A stretch of 64,000 nucleotides of DNA, from the IMG/VR virus record IMGVR_UViG_3300034105_002260, one strand, 5' to 3'. The translations under genes were made by a program, and so were the position numbers. The number at the start of each line of letters is the position of its first letter. Position 1 is the stretch's first letter. Under the pieces are notes generated by a model. The model did not search any database and had not been told where the DNA came from. It saw only the letters and a list, made by a program, of their open reading frames with translations. Below are positions 35,968-55,443 of this stretch, piece after piece. The stretch is from a virus.

Positions 35968-36041
35968 ACAGGACGGGACGGGTAGAAATACTCGTTTTAG
36001 TTGGTTTCCCCTGGGAGTGGTGTACCAGGGGATTTTTTTTT
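35968..36041 (+). ncRNA. Candidate small structured RNA
   Basis: TATTTAT at 35958, GC-rich hairpin with GAAA loop (35975-35998), terminator hairpin 36007-36032 plus T9; no credible ORF. Confidence 0.35.
36007..36041 (+). terminator. Intrinsic terminator
   Basis: TCCCCTGG...CCAGGGGA followed by 9 T. Confidence 0.8.
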
Positions 36042-37547: not shown

Positions 37548-38429
37548 ATGAATTTACAAGAAATTGCAACAGAAATAAATGAACTACTTGAAAATAGACG
37601 AAAGGAATTAGATTTAACTTTCGTTGAAGAGGAACACATTTATTATATGAGAGATACCGAAGGGGTGTTAAGAAAAACATTCCCATCAGTTTCTAAATTA
37701 ATAAAAAAATTCCACAAGGCATTTGATGCGGATGGTATGTCACTTAAAATGTGTAAGGGTGATCCTGAAGCCGCAGCACTTTTGAGAGAAGAATGGAAAC
37801 AATCTGGAACCTATGCAACCAATATGGGTAGTAGAGTTCACTTTGTATTAGAGAGTGACACCATTAGTCGTTTTGGTGATTACAAGGAAGTTAGACAACC
37901 TATATTCGAATGTGATGATGCTCAGTTATTAAGAAGTGATAGTATGATTAAAGCGGGAAAAGAATTTCTTGACTTAATGATTGAAAGAGGGGCAATACTT
38001 TTAGATACTGAAATCATATTAGGTGATAACGAATTAGGTTACACAGGACAACCAGACAAAGTTTGGTTAATGTTTAACAAAGACAAAACAGATTTCGGAA
38101 TTGTAATTACAGATTGGAAAACAAACCAACCAAAAAACTTTGAAATCCAACATTACACAGGTAAAATGTATGCACCGTTTAATGAATATCACGACACGGC
38201 GCTTGGCCATTATTATTTACAACTACCGTTATATGCTAGGTTATTACTTAAAATGTTAAAAGGAACTAAGTATGAAAACTTAAAATTATTAGGATGTGTT
38301 GTGATTTTATTGAAAGACGATGGGACATACCAAGAATATAAAGTACCTTCACAAGTAAACAACACAGTATTAAATTTAGACTTAACAAAATATATTGATT
38401 ATGGTAAAAAAGGTTATACATATCGCTGA
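37548..38429 (+). CDS. PD-(D/E)XK exonuclease (RecB/Cas4-like)
   Basis: PSVS, GSRVH, GQPD, DWKT, YYLQLPLY motifs. Confidence 0.85.
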   Translation: MNLQEIATEINELLENRRKELDLTFVEEEHIYYMRDTEGVLRKTFPSVSKLIKKFHKAFDADGMSLKMCKGDPEAAALLREEWKQSGTYATNMGSRVHFVLESDTISRFGDYKEVRQPIFECDDAQLLRSDSMIKAGKEFLDLMIERGAILLDTEIILGDNELGYTGQPDKVWLMFNKDKTDFGIVITDWKTNQPKNFEIQHYTGKMYAPFNEYHDTALGHYYLQLPLYARLLLKMLKGTKYENLKLLGCVVILLKDDGTYQEYKVPSQVNNTVLNLDLTKYIDYGKKGYTYR

Positions 38430-39219
38430 TCTTCACATCAGAACAATTCAAATGCACGACTTATATAAAGAACAATTTGAAAAGTTAATTAATGAGATTA
38501 ATGAATTACAAATTGAATGGAATAAAGAGGGAATTACATCTGATAATATTAGGATAGTTGTTGCTGGGGATATTGCTCACCAAAAGATAAACATATCTAA
38601 CGAACAATTAATGTTAACAAGTTGGTTTCTAAAAGAACTATCTTACTTAGGTAATGTTGTAATAATACCAGGTAATCACGATTTCTTAGAGAACAATACA
38701 CAAAGATTAGACAGTATTAGTCCTGTCGTTGATTTATTAGATAATAAAAATATCCAATACTATAAAGATAGTGGTGGCTATATTGATGAAAACATTCAAT
38801 GGGTTGTTTATTCTTTATATCAACATAACGCTCGACCAGAGTTTACCAAAGATAAAACTAAATTAACTATTGGTTTATTTCACGGACCTATTATGGGTTT
38901 ATCCACCGATATGGGATTCGAATTTGAAGATGCTTATGATCAATTAAACTTTGTTGGTTTGGATTTACTATTGTGTGGTGACATTCATAAGAGACAAACG
39001 TTCACATTACCTGAAGGAGGTAAAGCAGTTATGATTGGTTCATTAATACAACAAAACTTTGGTGAATCAGTTAAACATCACGGATATGGTATTTATGATG
39101 TTGAAACGGATAACTATACATTCAAGGATATGGATAACGTACAACCGTTTCTACACTTTAAAATAAACGACATAAATGACATTGAAAATGAAAAAGAAGA
39201 GCTCGTTAACCTTGGATAA
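38401..39219 (+). CDS. sbcD: Mre11/SbcD (gp47-like) metallophosphoesterase nuclease
   Basis: ADLH, GDIAH, GNHD, FHG, GDIHKRQ, GSLIQQNFGE. Confidence 0.92.
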   Translation: MVKKVIHIADLHIRTIQMHDLYKEQFEKLINEINELQIEWNKEGITSDNIRIVVAGDIAHQKINISNEQLMLTSWFLKELSYLGNVVIIPGNHDFLENNTQRLDSISPVVDLLDNKNIQYYKDSGGYIDENIQWVVYSLYQHNARPEFTKDKTKLTIGLFHGPIMGLSTDMGFEFEDAYDQLNFVGLDLLLCGDIHKRQTFTLPEGGKAVMIGSLIQQNFGESVKHHGYGIYDVETDNYTFKDMDNVQPFLHFKINDINDIENEKEELVNLG

Positions 39220-39712
39220 TGAATTCCTTCTTTATTGTGAAATAAATGGAATTGAAAATATTGACAAACTTGCAAAGGAAACCTTCGAGAGAGGGTTTTC
39301 TTTATTAAAATATGGTGAAACCCCAACAGGTAATAGTACCGTAAAAGAAAAGATAGTAGAAGTAATCAAGGAAGTTATTATTGAAAAACAATTACCATCT
39401 GAAATAAAATACGTTGATAGGGAAGTTATTAAAGAGGTGCCTGTTGAAAGAATTGTAGAAGTGATAAAAGAAGTTCCGGTTGAAATTAAGGGAGACACCC
39501 AAGTGATAACGAAAGAAATAATTAAGGAAGTGCCCGTTGATAGGATTGTGGAAAAGATTGTGGAAATTACAAACAACGAGGAAATAGAAAGACTCACCAA
39601 AAAGAATTCAGAATTGGAAACTGAGTTAGGAAACATCAAAATATCATTAGAGAAATTTAACAAAGCTACCTATATGAAAAATAGTGACCTGGGTAGTTTA
39701 TATAGTGAATAA
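39188..39712 (+). CDS. Hypothetical protein with KEVPV/EKIVE repeats and coiled coil
   Basis: Val/Glu/Lys repeats visible in translation. Confidence 0.65.
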   Translation: MKKKSSLTLDNEFLLYCEINGIENIDKLAKETFERGFSLLKYGETPTGNSTVKEKIVEVIKEVIIEKQLPSEIKYVDREVIKEVPVERIVEVIKEVPVEIKGDTQVITKEIIKEVPVDRIVEKIVEITNNEEIERLTKKNSELETELGNIKISLEKFNKATYMKNSDLGSLYSE

Positions 39713-39760
39713 TTTCTTTTTCTCAAAAATTTAGTTTATTATTTAATAAAAACAAATACT

Positions 39761-40072
39761 ATGGTTTTATTAACATTATGGGCCTTTATTGCCTACGGAT
39801 TTACATCAATAATTGTTTGGGGTGCCATTTTTGAAAAAACTCGAATATTCATTAAGAAACATTCAAATTTTTTTGGTGATTTAATTTCTTGTACATTATG
39901 TACGTCAACTTGGGTTGGATTTTTTATGTCAATATGTCTTGGAGGTTTATCTTCAAGAATTTTAGACACACATTGGTTACCAAGTATTTTCTTTGACGGT
40001 ATGTTCACCGCTGGAATCGTCTGGTCAATAAATGCAATCATAGAATTTTTTGAAGAAAGCAGAATAAAATAG
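39761..40072 (+). CDS. Small membrane protein, DUF1360-like
   Basis: Hydrophobic segments and LISCTLCTSTWVG motif. Confidence 0.6.
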   Translation: MVLLTLWAFIAYGFTSIIVWGAIFEKTRIFIKKHSNFFGDLISCTLCTSTWVGFFMSICLGGLSSRILDTHWLPSIFFDGMFTAGIVWSINAIIEFFEESRIK

Positions 40073-41055
40073 TGAAATCTTTAAGGATAGGTAATAATAC
40101 CTTTTATTATTTAACAACAAAGGAAATTCTTTATAGAGTAACTAAGGAATACTACTTAGACAATGTTAAGTTGTTTGATTCAGTACGTTCAAAGAATGAT
40201 GAAGATAAGGAAAAATCAATCTATGTTGATATAATAAAAGGTTATAAACAATCCTTCTTTAAGATGTCATCTGAAACAATGGATAACTGGAAAGTTATTA
40301 TAGATGAACTTAAAGAAAAATATAAAGAAGGGGAGTTTGAGCAGGTTGTCAGTCACATAAATAAGGATTCAACGGGTGAATACCACCAAGTCCTTATGAA
40401 ACATATTGAGAAGGTAAACAAGATAAATCCTACAACAATTTTGGGTAGATTATTAAGTTATTCACCAATTGATGAATTAGGATATTCACAACCAACTTTT
40501 TTTAATACCTTTGACATAGTAAAAGACGCTAAACTAATTCCTAATAATGGGGTTCAATGGGATAGACAAGTAAGGAATTACTTCTATGTTGAATATTATA
40601 AGGAAAAAGGTTCAACCATAGGTTATAGATTTATTGGTTTTAATTTACAAGACGTAACTAAAAACAGACAAATTAGACCAGACATTAGGAGAGCATTTGA
40701 AGATGTTCCCTGTGTACATTGTTGGACACCAAATAAGTCTCATAAGAAACACGAGATAGACCATAAGAATGGAAGATACGATGATGACCAAGTACTTGAA
40801 TATAGTAGTCAAGAGGTCGACCATTTTCAAGCTTTATGTCGCGAACACAACCTTCTAAAAAGAAGTGCGTGTAAAAAATGTAAAGCAAATGATATTAGAT
40901 TCGACGCAACGTTTTTAGGGTACACCACGTCAGTCACCGAAGGTACGTTAAAATATGAAGAACAGTTAGGTTGTAAAGGTTGTTATCTATACGACCCATT
41001 AGATTTTAGATCACAATTCATTTTAAAAACAAAAGAGAATAATGAAATACAATAA
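40072..41055 (+). CDS. NlaIII/IceA1-like HNH restriction endonuclease with N-terminal extension
   Basis: GFN...IRPDI...EIDHKNGR...FQALC...N..KR..CKKCK...LGCKGCYLYDP matches the R.NlaIII/IceA1 motif order as recalled. Confidence 0.8.
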   Translation: MKSLRIGNNTFYYLTTKEILYRVTKEYYLDNVKLFDSVRSKNDEDKEKSIYVDIIKGYKQSFFKMSSETMDNWKVIIDELKEKYKEGEFEQVVSHINKDSTGEYHQVLMKHIEKVNKINPTTILGRLLSYSPIDELGYSQPTFFNTFDIVKDAKLIPNNGVQWDRQVRNYFYVEYYKEKGSTIGYRFIGFNLQDVTKNRQIRPDIRRAFEDVPCVHCWTPNKSHKKHEIDHKNGRYDDDQVLEYSSQEVDHFQALCREHNLLKRSACKKCKANDIRFDATFLGYTTSVTEGTLKYEEQLGCKGCYLYDPLDFRSQFILKTKENNEIQ

Positions 41056-43384
41056 TCCATTTATTAAAGTTACTTGGGAAGATACACCAGAAAACTTTAC
41101 TCCTGAAAAAATCAGAAGAGTAAAATCTTATTTTCAAGACAAATACAAAGGAAAGAATATCCAGGTCATTACCAAGAGTTTGGTTAACACTTCCAACGTA
41201 CAATTACAATCGTTGGAGGCATCTGATAGTATATTAGATAACCAATATCAAAAAGGTTTGATGAAAGATTTTATTAAGGAAAATGGAATCACAACTAAAT
41301 GGGAATTGGTTGATAGGTTAGATAATAGAGTTAACGGAGAAATCGATAAGTTAAATCAAAATAAAGTTCGTTACAATAAATGGTATATCAAGAAGATTGA
41401 GTTTTCTAATTTTCTTTCTTTTGGTGAAGATAACGTAATTGATTATACCTCATTAGATGGTATTACAGTTATTGAATCCACACCAAAGAACTTCGGAGGT
41501 AAATCTACTTCTTCAGTTGATTTATTGATGTTCTTATTTTTTAATTCAACAACCAAAACTAAAACAGCAATTGAAATATTCAATAAGTTTAGTGATAAAG
41601 ATGAGTTGAGTGTTAGAGGTGAAATTACTATTGATGGTGATGATTATGTTATTGAAAGGAAACTATCAAGAAAGAAAACCAAAGTAGGTGAATACAACGT
41701 AACCAATAAACTTGAGTTTTATAAGAAGAAGGAAGATGGTACCGTTGAGAACTTAACTGGTGAACAAAGAAGAGAGACTGAAGCATTTATTGAATCGGCT
41801 ATTGGTAGTGAAGAAGATTTCTTGGCAACCATTATGACCACAGGTAACAACTTAGAACAGTTAATTGAATCCAAACCAACGGCACGTGGACAAATCCTAA
41901 CTAAGTTTATGGGATTGGAGAGTTTAAAAGTAAAGGAAGACATAGCGAGAGGAATATATAATGATTGGAGCAGAAAGTTGGTATCTAATACATACAACAT
42001 TACTCAATTGGAGATTGATAATACCAATTATCAAGACAGTATCACCAATTCTGAAAATGAAAACGAAAGATTAAATGGTGAACTAACTAGATTAGATAAA
42101 CACCTAAAAGAATTGGAAGGTAGACGTGATACTGTGTTAGGTTCTCGTAATAACGATATAGATAGAGAACTAATTAATACCAACCCAACTTTACTTGAAA
42201 GAGAAATAAATGATTTAACGAAACAAAAAAATAGTAGTCAGGTAAATGCGGACGGTGTAAGTGTTGTTGAACCTTCAAAGTATTATGAAGAAGATCAACA
42301 CAAAGAGTTAAGAGGTGAGATGGCAAATCTTCAAGGAATTGATGTTGCTTACAAATACGAAAAGACTCAAAGAGAAAAACTAATTAAACAATTTGAAGAA
42401 GGAACAGTTTGCCCAACTTGTAATCGTGCATTAGATGAAGTTGATCACACCGATGAGATTGAAAAGATTAAAAAAGAAATTGAGGACATCATTAAAGAGA
42501 TAGAATTAAATCAGATTCAATTTGATTTATTAAAACAACAATCCGAACAATTTGATGCACTAAGAACCGAATTTGATACTTACGAGAGAAACAAACTTCG
42601 TAAATCTCGATATGAGTTGGAGGTAGAACAAAAACAACTAGAGATTAGTAATAAACAATTAAGGTTAGATAGATACGACGATAATAAAAAGAAATTAGAG
42701 GAGAATCAAAAAATAGATGCTGAGGTTATTGCGTTAAGAACTAAGATTGATACTGCCAATGCTGATATTAGAGTTACAAACATCACTATTGAACGACATA
42801 AATCAAATATTGAAACAATGAAAGAAAAAATTGGAGTCAATAATGATTTGATTGTTAAGATTAAAGGTGAGGAAGAACTTGGGAATACATTCAAAACTTA
42901 CTTAACCATTTATGGTAAGAATGGTATTTCAAAATTGATTATGAAAAATATGATTCCGCTATTAAACCAGGAGTTGTATCGTTTATTAGTTGATAGTTGT
43001 CATTTCATTTTAGAATTAAATGTAAACGACAAGAATGAAGTTGAGTTCTTAATGATTGATACCGAAACAAGAGTGGTAAAACCATTGAACTCAGGATCTG
43101 GTTATGAAAAGACAATCTCATCATTAGCATTGAGATCAGTATTAACAAAGATTTCATCATTACCTAAACCAAACATCGTGGTTATGGATGAGGTGTTTGG
43201 TAAAGTGGCGGATGAGAACCTAGAGATGGTTGGTGAGTTCTTTAAGAAGATTAAAGATTACTTTGAACATATTATAGTAATTTCCCATAACCCTTTAATC
43301 CGTAATTGGTCGGACAATATCATTATGATTAAGAAAGAGGAAAATATCTCTTCTATTGATTATATCACAACAAAAATTTCGTAA
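41042..43384 (+). CDS. sbcC: Rad50/SbcC (gp46-like) ATPase with extra N-terminal domain
   Basis: NFLSFG, NFGGKS Walker A, CPTC zinc hook, SGYEK signature, VVMDE Walker B, ISH. Confidence 0.93.
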   Translation: MKYNNPFIKVTWEDTPENFTPEKIRRVKSYFQDKYKGKNIQVITKSLVNTSNVQLQSLEASDSILDNQYQKGLMKDFIKENGITTKWELVDRLDNRVNGEIDKLNQNKVRYNKWYIKKIEFSNFLSFGEDNVIDYTSLDGITVIESTPKNFGGKSTSSVDLLMFLFFNSTTKTKTAIEIFNKFSDKDELSVRGEITIDGDDYVIERKLSRKKTKVGEYNVTNKLEFYKKKEDGTVENLTGEQRRETEAFIESAIGSEEDFLATIMTTGNNLEQLIESKPTARGQILTKFMGLESLKVKEDIARGIYNDWSRKLVSNTYNITQLEIDNTNYQDSITNSENENERLNGELTRLDKHLKELEGRRDTVLGSRNNDIDRELINTNPTLLEREINDLTKQKNSSQVNADGVSVVEPSKYYEEDQHKELRGEMANLQGIDVAYKYEKTQREKLIKQFEEGTVCPTCNRALDEVDHTDEIEKIKKEIEDIIKEIELNQIQFDLLKQQSEQFDALRTEFDTYERNKLRKSRYELEVEQKQLEISNKQLRLDRYDDNKKKLEENQKIDAEVIALRTKIDTANADIRVTNITIERHKSNIETMKEKIGVNNDLIVKIKGEEELGNTFKTYLTIYGKNGISKLIMKNMIPLLNQELYRLLVDSCHFILELNVNDKNEVEFLMIDTETRVVKPLNSGSGYEKTISSLALRSVLTKISSLPKPNIVVMDEVFGKVADENLEMVGEFFKKIKDYFEHIIVISHNPLIRNWSDNIIMIKKEENISSIDYITTKIS

Positions 43385-44109: not shown

Positions 44110-44140
44110 AAGGGGACGAAAGTCCCCTTCTTCATTTCTT
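44110..44140 (+). terminator. Intrinsic terminator after clpP
   Basis: AAGGGGAC-GAAA-GTCCCCTT followed by pyrimidine tract. Confidence 0.75.
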
Positions 44141-54600: not shown

Positions 54601-55443
54601 ATGATATCATACATCGGAGGTAAGGCAAGAATTGGTAAATGGATAACACCATTCATCCCAACAGACATTGAAACATACGTAGAAGGATTTTCGGGTATGT
54701 TCTGGGTCTTTTTTAATATGGACCTAACAAAGTACCCAAACCTTAAAACGGTGGTCTATAATGACTTTAATAGACTAAACGCTAACCTAATGAAATGGGC
54801 TAAACAGTATGATGTATTATGGGAAGAATTGGCCAAGTACCCTTGTCAACAATTGGGTGTGGTAGATACTCCTCCAGAATATCCTGAATTATATAAAAGA
54901 TGTCAAAGAGAAGTGTTTAACCCTGAATTAGTTATCACAGAAGAAAATAGTTTGGACATCGCGGGTAAGTATGTTTATGTATTAACCCAAGTGTTCTCAG
55001 GTTCAAAACCCGAAACAGCCACATATACTGACTACAAAGGAAAATATCGTTGTAAGGTTCTTATTTTTATGGATAAGTTAAAGAATCCAAAATATAGAGA
55101 ACATTTTGATAAGTTAACGTTTGTTGAGAATATGGACTTCCAAAAAGTTGTGGAAAAATACGATTCACCAACAACTTATTTCTATATGGATCCACCATAT
55201 TGGAAAACTGAGAATTACTACTCCAATCACGATTTTGATGTAAATGACCACACAAGACTTGCTGAGTGTATTAAAAATATCCAAGGTAAATTTAGTTTAT
55301 CATATTATGTTTTCCCTAAATTAGTGGAGTGGTTTCCAAAAGATGAATACAGATGGGAACAAAAAGATTTTAAGAAGGCGGCAGCGGCGAAGAAAGATGG
55401 TACACAGAATGTTGGTACTGAACTCTTGATAATGAACTATTAA
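54601..55443 (+). CDS. Dam-like (D12 class) N6-adenine DNA methyltransferase
   Basis: YIGGK, YVEGFSG, VYND, DPPY, FSLSY, ELLIMNY. Confidence 0.92.
   Translation: MISYIGGKARIGKWITPFIPTDIETYVEGFSGMFWVFFNMDLTKYPNLKTVVYNDFNRLNANLMKWAKQYDVLWEELAKYPCQQLGVVDTPPEYPELYKRCQREVFNPELVITEENSLDIAGKYVYVLTQVFSGSKPETATYTDYKGKYRCKVLIFMDKLKNPKYREHFDKLTFVENMDFQKVVEKYDSPTTYFYMDPPYWKTENYYSNHDFDVNDHTRLAECIKNIQGKFSLSYYVFPKLVEWFPKDEYRWEQKDFKKAAAAKKDGTQNVGTELLIMNY

Follow-up and report, generated by a model that had tools for sequence, protein, structure and literature searches.

How can a phage carry the gene for a restriction nuclease with no methylase gene beside it? This question is raised by the open reading frame (ORF) at positions 40072–41055 of a 64,000-nucleotide stretch of viral DNA (IMG/VR record IMGVR_UViG_3300034105_002260; the whole stretch is hereafter referred to as the window). 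An earlier reading of the sequence alone (hereafter referred to as the original prediction) had assigned the product of this ORF to the NlaIII/IceA1 nucleases, reported that no methyltransferase was adjacent and that the parts read contained no CATG, and suggested a Markov-based count and a profile search as checks. Our comparative analysis indicates that the ORF probably encodes an active nuclease of the NlaIII/IceA1 family, likely to be specific for CATG, which is kept without a methylase since the phage genome is free of CATG. The gene and the CATG-free region are as follows:

40072–41055, + strand: solitary ICEA/NlaIII-family HNH nuclease gene (“long form”), recognised from its PF05315 match, the invariant columns of the family and the ratio of nonsynonymous to synonymous substitution rates (dN/dS)
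1–64000, no strand: CATG-free DNA, 0 CATG observed versus 172 expected

Absence of CATG from the window

Under a second-order Markov model, 172 copies of CATG were expected in the window and none was observed; dinucleotide shuffles, with both strands counted, raised the expectation to 235. The absence first noticed from a partial reading therefore extends to all 64,000 bases. CATG was the only 4-mer with a zero count, and the other palindromes said to be present were all found (79 GATC, 225 GTAC, 117 TGCA and 52 AGCT). The next most depleted 4-mers, with observed/expected (O/E) ratios of 0.25 to 0.42, were GCGC (7/28), CCGG (18/67), CGCG (15/40) and GATC (79/189), which suggests pressure from several other restriction specificities. 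The avoidance of CATG by codon pairs, originally noted for particular pairs of residues, holds in aggregate: 85 in-frame sites (28 xxC-ATG, 22 CAT-G and 35 xCA-TG) were expected from the codon usage and the dipeptides present, and none was observed. The dipeptides that can be written with CATG still occur in the genes of the window (216 + 41 + 70 cases), and the constraint therefore bears on the DNA word rather than on the proteins.

The nuclease and its modules

The nuclease ORF encodes 327 amino acids (aa) from a GTG start, with a 1-nt overlap with the upstream stop codon and a 14-nt overlap with the next gene. The Pfam ICEA profile (PF05315) matched residues 159–320 with an E-value of 1.7e-26 and a score of 93.6 bits, above the curated cut-off (24), and the motifs on which the family had been proposed (IGFN, IRPDI, EIDHKNGR, FQALC, CKKCK and GCKGCYLYDP) are all found in the ORF. 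In a family alignment of 32 sequences, the protein retained 22/22 invariant columns, including C214, D230, H231, K232, G234, R235, F252, Q253, N260, K263, R264, C267, C270, C301, C304, Y305 and D308. The HNH core reads E-I-D-H-K-N-G-R-Y, followed by N260 and CxxC, and the Cys zinc ligands are conserved; given this family membership, CATG would most likely be the sequence recognised. Relative to two related loci (L001 and L004, see below), dN/dS was about 0.08, with saturated dS, and was alike for the N-terminal module and the remainder, indicating that the whole protein is held by purifying selection. The AlphaFold (AF2) model, with a predicted local distance difference test (pLDDT) score of 78.6, contained three modules:

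40072–40371, + strand: N-terminal module (aa 1–100), found in the long forms of jumbo phages only, pLDDT 76
40372–40656, + strand: middle module (aa ~101–195), winged-helix-like in the AF2 model and partly covered by the Pfam ICEA profile
40657–41001, + strand: HNH/His-Me finger catalytic domain with Cys zinc ligands (aa 196–310), recognised from structure matches and motif

In the family alignment, the short forms begin near aa 103 and so lack the N-terminal module, and a query with aa 1–100 retrieved only the same long-form jumbo-phage proteins. On structural alignment, the closest match to this module was the SeqA C-domain, at a noise-level Z of 3.9; a shape search gave a template modelling (TM) score of ~0.5 to part of a T5orf172 protein, too poor for the fold to be named, and a structural feature search gave no usable match. 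The middle module had weak ArsR/SmtB-type winged-helix matches (Z ~4) and is presumed, from the model, to be the DNA-recognition part. The modelled catalytic domain matched the HNH domains of GVE2 (Z 6.2) and ZRANB3 (5.7), EcoKMcrA (5.7), Cap5 (5.4) and T4 endonuclease VII (4.6); these matches to the HNH fold are modest alone, but consistent. A sequence search of the PDB with the nuclease gave chance matches only, and Foldseek found nothing below an E-value of 0.8 in the PDB.

Solitary nuclease genes and CATG in related phages

The relatives compared comprised 80 loci recovered through the SbcC-like neighbour of the nuclease gene and 44 recovered with the ICEA alignment. No close relatives were found in the INPHARED phage collection (tblastn, blastn); in IMG/VR, a scan with a single protein found none, whereas alignment-based scans did. 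The jumbo phages among which the window phage falls are uncultured and form a large clade, with contigs reaching 336 kb. On the SbcC tree, the solitary long form occurs at four separate places (the window with L001 and L004; L026; L036 with L139 and L140; and L006), each of which is sister to CATG-bearing phages without the gene, and it always sits between the SbcD-like and SbcC-like genes. The CATG counts (observed/expected) in the carriers and their relatives were as follows:

G006, solitary long form: 0/222
G007, solitary long form: 0/200
G010 (160 kb), solitary long form: 0/512
L001, L004, L006 and L139, solitary long form: 0/31–54 each
Near clade without the solitary gene, 51 loci: O/E 0.39–0.94, all keeping sites
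G009, complete 335.6-kb genome without ICEA: 584/1138, evenly spread
L007, short nuclease and PF01555 methylase in the same slot: 26/55
G011 (= L137), long form and PF01555 methylase: 6/170

The solitary carriers together amount to about 476 kb of DNA, in which about 1340 CATG would be expected and none was found. With the nucleases clustered at 60% identity, a zero CATG count characterised 4/4 solitary clusters versus 0/17 paired clusters (Fisher P = 1.7e-4), the single mixed cluster in this comparison being the T4-like contrast of L148 versus L145/L147 described below. The tree contrasts pointed in the same direction in 4/4 independent pairs. The original prediction had proposed that the phage is protected by the absence of sites in place of methylation, and the comparison supports this proposal: among phages, solitary ICEA genes were found only in CATG-free DNA (four jumbo-phage lineages and one T4-like phage).

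Codon alignments of nine genes from the neighbourhood were used to polarise the change. CATG columns in the relatives without the gene were shared by 4.6 taxa per column, versus 3.7–4.3 for control 4-mers, and the sites are therefore old rather than regained. Where the sister group and outgroups have CATG, the carriers show TATG, CACG or CTTG, mostly as synonymous differences; the CATG-free state was thus derived separately in each carrier lineage. These alignments indicate that ancestral CATG sites were removed through single-base changes, most of them synonymous.

A second phage family repeats the contrast. L148 (contig G012) and L145/L147 (L145 on contig G013) are syntenic T4-like phages in which the gene for a gp21-type prohead protease adjoins the ICEA gene, and their short-form ICEA genes, in the same position, are 73% identical. 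The nuclease gene of L145 and L147 is followed by that of a methylase, and CATG stands at 25/195 over the G013 contig; in L148, it is exactly the methylase that is missing, and CATG stands at 0/46 over G012. The solitary T4-like L148 carries the short form, so that a nuclease can be solitary without the N-terminal module; since the module occurs also in L137, which has a methylase, it is no stand-in for a methylase either. Among carriers with a methylase, no 4-mer of the genome is depleted as strongly as CATG (G011, 6/170; G013, 25/195).

Further ICEA genes lie outside these two families. L151 (9761–10627, + strand) encodes a 288-aa ICEA + HNH protein on a contig resembling those of nucleocytoplasmic large DNA viruses, with the gene for a giant-virus major capsid protein next door. 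Bacterial homologues (L181–L191, from Opitutae, Pelagibacteraceae, Alphaproteobacteria and Firmicutes) were 34–41% identical to the phage nuclease over the aligned segment, and 5/11 of these loci had a PF01555-like methylase within 250 bp of the ICEA gene. Bacterial genomes were scanned with a single strict pattern; the 11 loci recovered include no Neisseria, Helicobacter or Bacteroidota, and the result is uninformative on hosts.

Methyltransferases in and around the locus

In agreement with the original prediction, no methyltransferase gene adjoins the nuclease gene, and there is none between the SbcD-like and SbcC-like genes of the window. The earlier picture was nevertheless corrected when the 52 large ORFs of the window were all scanned against Pfam, which revealed one methylase gene 13.5 kb downstream of the nuclease:

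54601–55443, + strand: D12/Dam-family N6-adenine methyltransferase (PF02086, E-value 1.7e-18, DPPY motif)

We considered this enzyme as a hidden partner of the nuclease and rejected it, as its gene belongs to the phage backbone and is independent of ICEA and CATG status. Its identity to the window protein is 82–83% in G006 and G007 and 81% in G010, all with ICEA and no CATG; 82% in G009, without ICEA and with 584 CATG; and 56–57% in G001, which has neither ICEA nor CATG nor GATC. The genome holds no CATG, and the D12 methylase therefore cannot be protecting CATG there. The enzyme is kept at 56–83% identity across the whole phage family, even in genomes without GATC and CATG, and must therefore have another target motif or act on host DNA.

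Wherever a PF01555 methylase was found in an ICEA context, it adjoined the ICEA gene. Such a methylase lies beside short-form ICEA in L007–L009, L132/133, L134–136 and many IMG/VR loci, and the L137 methylase is 76% identical to that of L007. In L142 and L160, a C5 methylase (PF00145) adjoins short-form ICEA, thereby explaining two apparent exceptions. L137 (10001–11889 on contig G011) combines a long-form ICEA gene with an adjacent PF01555 methylase and has six CATG in 50.6 kb; it is a possible intermediate between a full restriction-modification (R-M) cassette and the solitary state. A type II R-M system has a cognate methylase, and none accompanies the window nuclease; because this defining component is absent, the window nuclease is not an R-M system.

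The slot between the SbcD-like and SbcC-like genes

The nuclease gene occupies a variable interval (window positions 39219–41042, hereafter referred to as the slot) with the following neighbours:

38395–39219, + strand: SbcD/Mre11/gp47-like phosphoesterase, upstream border of the slot (PF00149, E-value 1.4e-12; conserved in 75 related loci)
39176–40072, + strand: two small ORFs directly upstream of the nuclease, of 178 aa (no family) and 103 aa (weak DUF1360 match)
41042–43384, + strand: SbcC/Rad50/gp46-like ATPase, 780 aa, downstream border of the slot (weak PF13558 match)

The SbcC-like ATPase is 45–87% identical in about 84 related loci, and the families of the two small ORFs (slot families 0 and 1) were found in 81 loci. 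The slot ranges from 647 to 4069 bp among L010–L089. Elsewhere, ten loci have orphan PF01555 methylases there, L021 and L024 each carry an Eco57I/N6_Mtase-like methylase, and L036 has a UDP-glucose dehydrogenase. Accessory and DNA-modification genes generally gather here, making the slot a hotspot, and a position between SbcD and SbcC is therefore weak evidence by itself. Ribonucleotide reductase genes are also present in the window.

A 174-aa slot ORF without a Pfam match (e.g. L082, 8141–8662) was found in L066, L069, L072–L074, L078, L081 and L082; it tracks exactly those loci of the distant clade that keep a few CATG, and is absent from the CATG-free L067, L068 and L077. A promoter scan yielded 45 candidates versus 52 expected in shuffles, indicating no enrichment. 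Terminator-like hairpins, which are consensus matches only, lie at 35975–35998 and 44110–44129.

Origin of the CATG-free state

In the phage's own CATG-free DNA, the nuclease would find nothing to cut, the absence of sites replacing methylation, and it would cleave unmethylated DNA with CATG sites in the infected cell, be it host chromosome or co-infecting phage. Host DNA would be our preferred target, given the tight packing with the gp47/gp46-like genes; competitor exclusion would be an equally plausible role. The position in the operon, together with the ribonucleotide reductase genes, fits nucleotide scavenging. As for the route to this state, a cassette of nuclease and methylase may have entered the variable slot; point changes, synonymous for the most part, would then have cleared the genome of CATG, a stage resembled by L137, which retains its methylase; once the last site had gone, the methylase could have been lost. 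We tentatively propose, as a possibility held with less assurance than the function itself, that the phage's own nuclease purged more than 1000 CATG from a genome of about 300 kb before loss of the methylase, leaving an offensive enzyme as the evolutionary end-state of restriction without modification, and that this occurred repeatedly, in at least two unrelated families. The remaining enzyme is proposed to shred host or rival DNA and to pass it on to the SbcCD-like nuclease, and it might additionally hinder recombination with relatives that still bear CATG.

Several observations weigh against this interpretation. The CATG count for the window phage covers 64 kb of its genome only, and a sign test with four pairs (P = 0.125) cannot reach 0.05. 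L007, with its short form and methylase, is not more depleted in CATG than its sisters; the slot is a hotspot, so the position of the gene in the operon may be incidental. L151 has an ICEA-HNH gene with no methylase found within 3 kb, yet it has a CATG count of 42/139, and is the sole remaining exception to the association of solitary genes with CATG-free DNA. CATG is under-represented throughout the clade (O/E ~0.5), and the distant subclade, with SbcC ~47% identical, is in most members strongly depleted in CATG, several having none, with no ICEA gene in these loci. The most direct case is G001, a distant relative with a complete genome of 308.6 kb (308,574 bp, with terminal repeats), which has CATG at 0/766 and GATC at 0/845; neither a protein search run with positive controls nor an unfiltered hmmsearch found an ICEA-family ORF in it. 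The expectation that depletion would follow the gene among relatives was thus borne out in the near clade, which keeps CATG where the gene is absent, and failed for G001. Total loss of a 4-mer is therefore possible without a recognisable nuclease of the phage's own, and the ICEA nuclease is not the sole possible cause of the purge. Total GATC loss likewise recurs in many separate jumbo-phage lineages. GATC was absent from G001 (0/845), G010 (0/473), G007 (0/211) and the T4-like G012 (0/56), and no DpnII- or MutH-type nucleases were found in the GATC-free G001 and G007. CTGG and CCAG were also strongly under-represented in G001 (129/410 and 213/568, respectively), G006, G007, G010 and G012, which suggests avoidance of CCWGG-type sites.

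Such complete losses of a 4-mer presumably arose under host restriction, and the depletion seen in the carriers could have started in the same way. On a fully host-driven account, the alternative named in the original prediction, CATG restriction by the host removed the sites first, and the nuclease was acquired, or its methylase lost, afterwards and is merely tolerated; against a CATG-methylated host, it may then serve only against other phages. The state of G001, the graded depletion (O/E 0.04–0.33 in the distant clade and ~0.5 in the near clade) and the total GATC loss in many lineages with no known nuclease are all in keeping with this account. Within the near clade, however, the CATG-free lineages carry the gene in 4/4 cases and 0/51 loci without the solitary gene are CATG-free, so that the pattern is all-or-none rather than graded; the paired carriers deplete CATG more than any other 4-mer, which points to their own system, and the strong purifying selection on the nuclease is not that of a passenger. 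Because of the all-or-none pattern and the depletion in the paired carriers, we favour the phage's own system and consider a purge driven by the host alone unlikely, albeit a serious alternative. A selfish, homing-type HNH endonuclease, mobile and cutting the empty slot at a longer or different target, with the absence of CATG unrelated, would account for the patchy occurrence of the gene at one intergenic position between conserved genes, for the HNH fold and for the lack of clear congruence between the ICEA and backbone trees. It appears very improbable, given that the missing word, one of 16 four-base palindromes, is exactly the recognition sequence of the family, and that its absence goes along with the gene in five lineages, drawn from two phage families, and with methylase loss; homing enzymes impose no genome-wide loss of a 4-mer, and ICEA was the only Pfam profile matched by the nuclease, with no NUMOD or IENR-type homing modules. 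We see equally little prospect for a catalytically silent or re-purposed protein, such as a DNA-binding regulator tolerated since it no longer cuts: the additional N-terminal module could be read in this way, but all the invariant catalytic and zinc-binding columns are retained, dN/dS is 0.08 over the nuclease part, and an inactive protein needs no CATG-free genome, yet all the carriers are CATG-free.

Comparison with known systems

In the textbook view, a restriction enzyme comes paired with a methylase, which is what renders it safe. The comparative record, with four lineages in one clade, a T4-like replicate and intermediates with a methylase and few sites, suggests a second route, in the form of a genome without targets. 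If cleavage at CATG proves true, this would provide a reason for which some phages carry “orphan” restriction genes, a concrete cause for the total loss of a 4-mer from large viral genomes and a simple means for a phage to attack the DNA of its host or of competitors; the missing word would also predict the specificity of an orphan nuclease from sequence alone. In T4, host DNA is broken down by endonucleases II and IV, after which the gp46/gp47 exonuclease finishes the process, and the phage distinguishes its own DNA from that of the host through hydroxymethylcytosine. The likeness to T4 is a functional analogy only: a nuclease sparing the phage would act upstream of an SbcCD-like gp46/gp47, and is encoded between the gp47-like and gp46-like genes. 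Unlike the base modification of T4, the distinction between self and host would here be a missing four-base word.

PF05315 corresponds to the NlaIII/IceA1 family, His-Me finger family 27 (PMC5714182). The window protein shares its profile, HNH core and Cys ligands with R.NlaIII of Neisseria lactamica and IceA1-HpyI of Helicobacter pylori, and the 4-mer that the phage lacks is precisely the sequence recognised by this family, CATG. These enzymes are halves of R-M systems, whereas the phage nuclease, the specificity of which is predicted, has no cognate methylase, has an additional N-terminal module of ~100 aa and is encoded within a recombination-nuclease operon of a virulent-type jumbo phage. 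The chlorovirus PBCV-1, with R.CviAII and M.CviAII, keeps about one CATG per 364 bp, protected by N6-methyladenine (PMC7248222). It is the nearest viral analogue and resembles the window phage as a large double-stranded DNA virus encoding a CATG-directed nuclease (here, a predicted one), and differs in that the window phage has neither CATG sites nor a partner methylase. Pandoravirus genomes are described in a preprint (bioRxiv 10.1101/712018) as wholly lacking one 4-mer, which is ascribed there to an unidentified selection process; the similarity is that a very large virus has lost one 4-mer altogether, and the difference is that a candidate nuclease is encoded in this phage's own genome.

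Oliveira et al. recorded 12 solitary restriction endonucleases in 831 phage genomes and suggested methylases acting in trans or non-expression, rather than the absence of sites, as the explanation (PMC4176335); loss of the methylase with a working nuclease kept may be lethal where sites exist (PMC4176335). We found no published description of a methylase-less phage restriction nuclease together with a site-free genome, in a search that left most subscription journals outside. As in known cases of restriction-site avoidance, a restriction site is under-represented in the DNA of the phage; unlike these cases, in which avoidance is usually partial and ascribed to host enzymes, it is here total and tied to the phage's own nuclease without a methylase.

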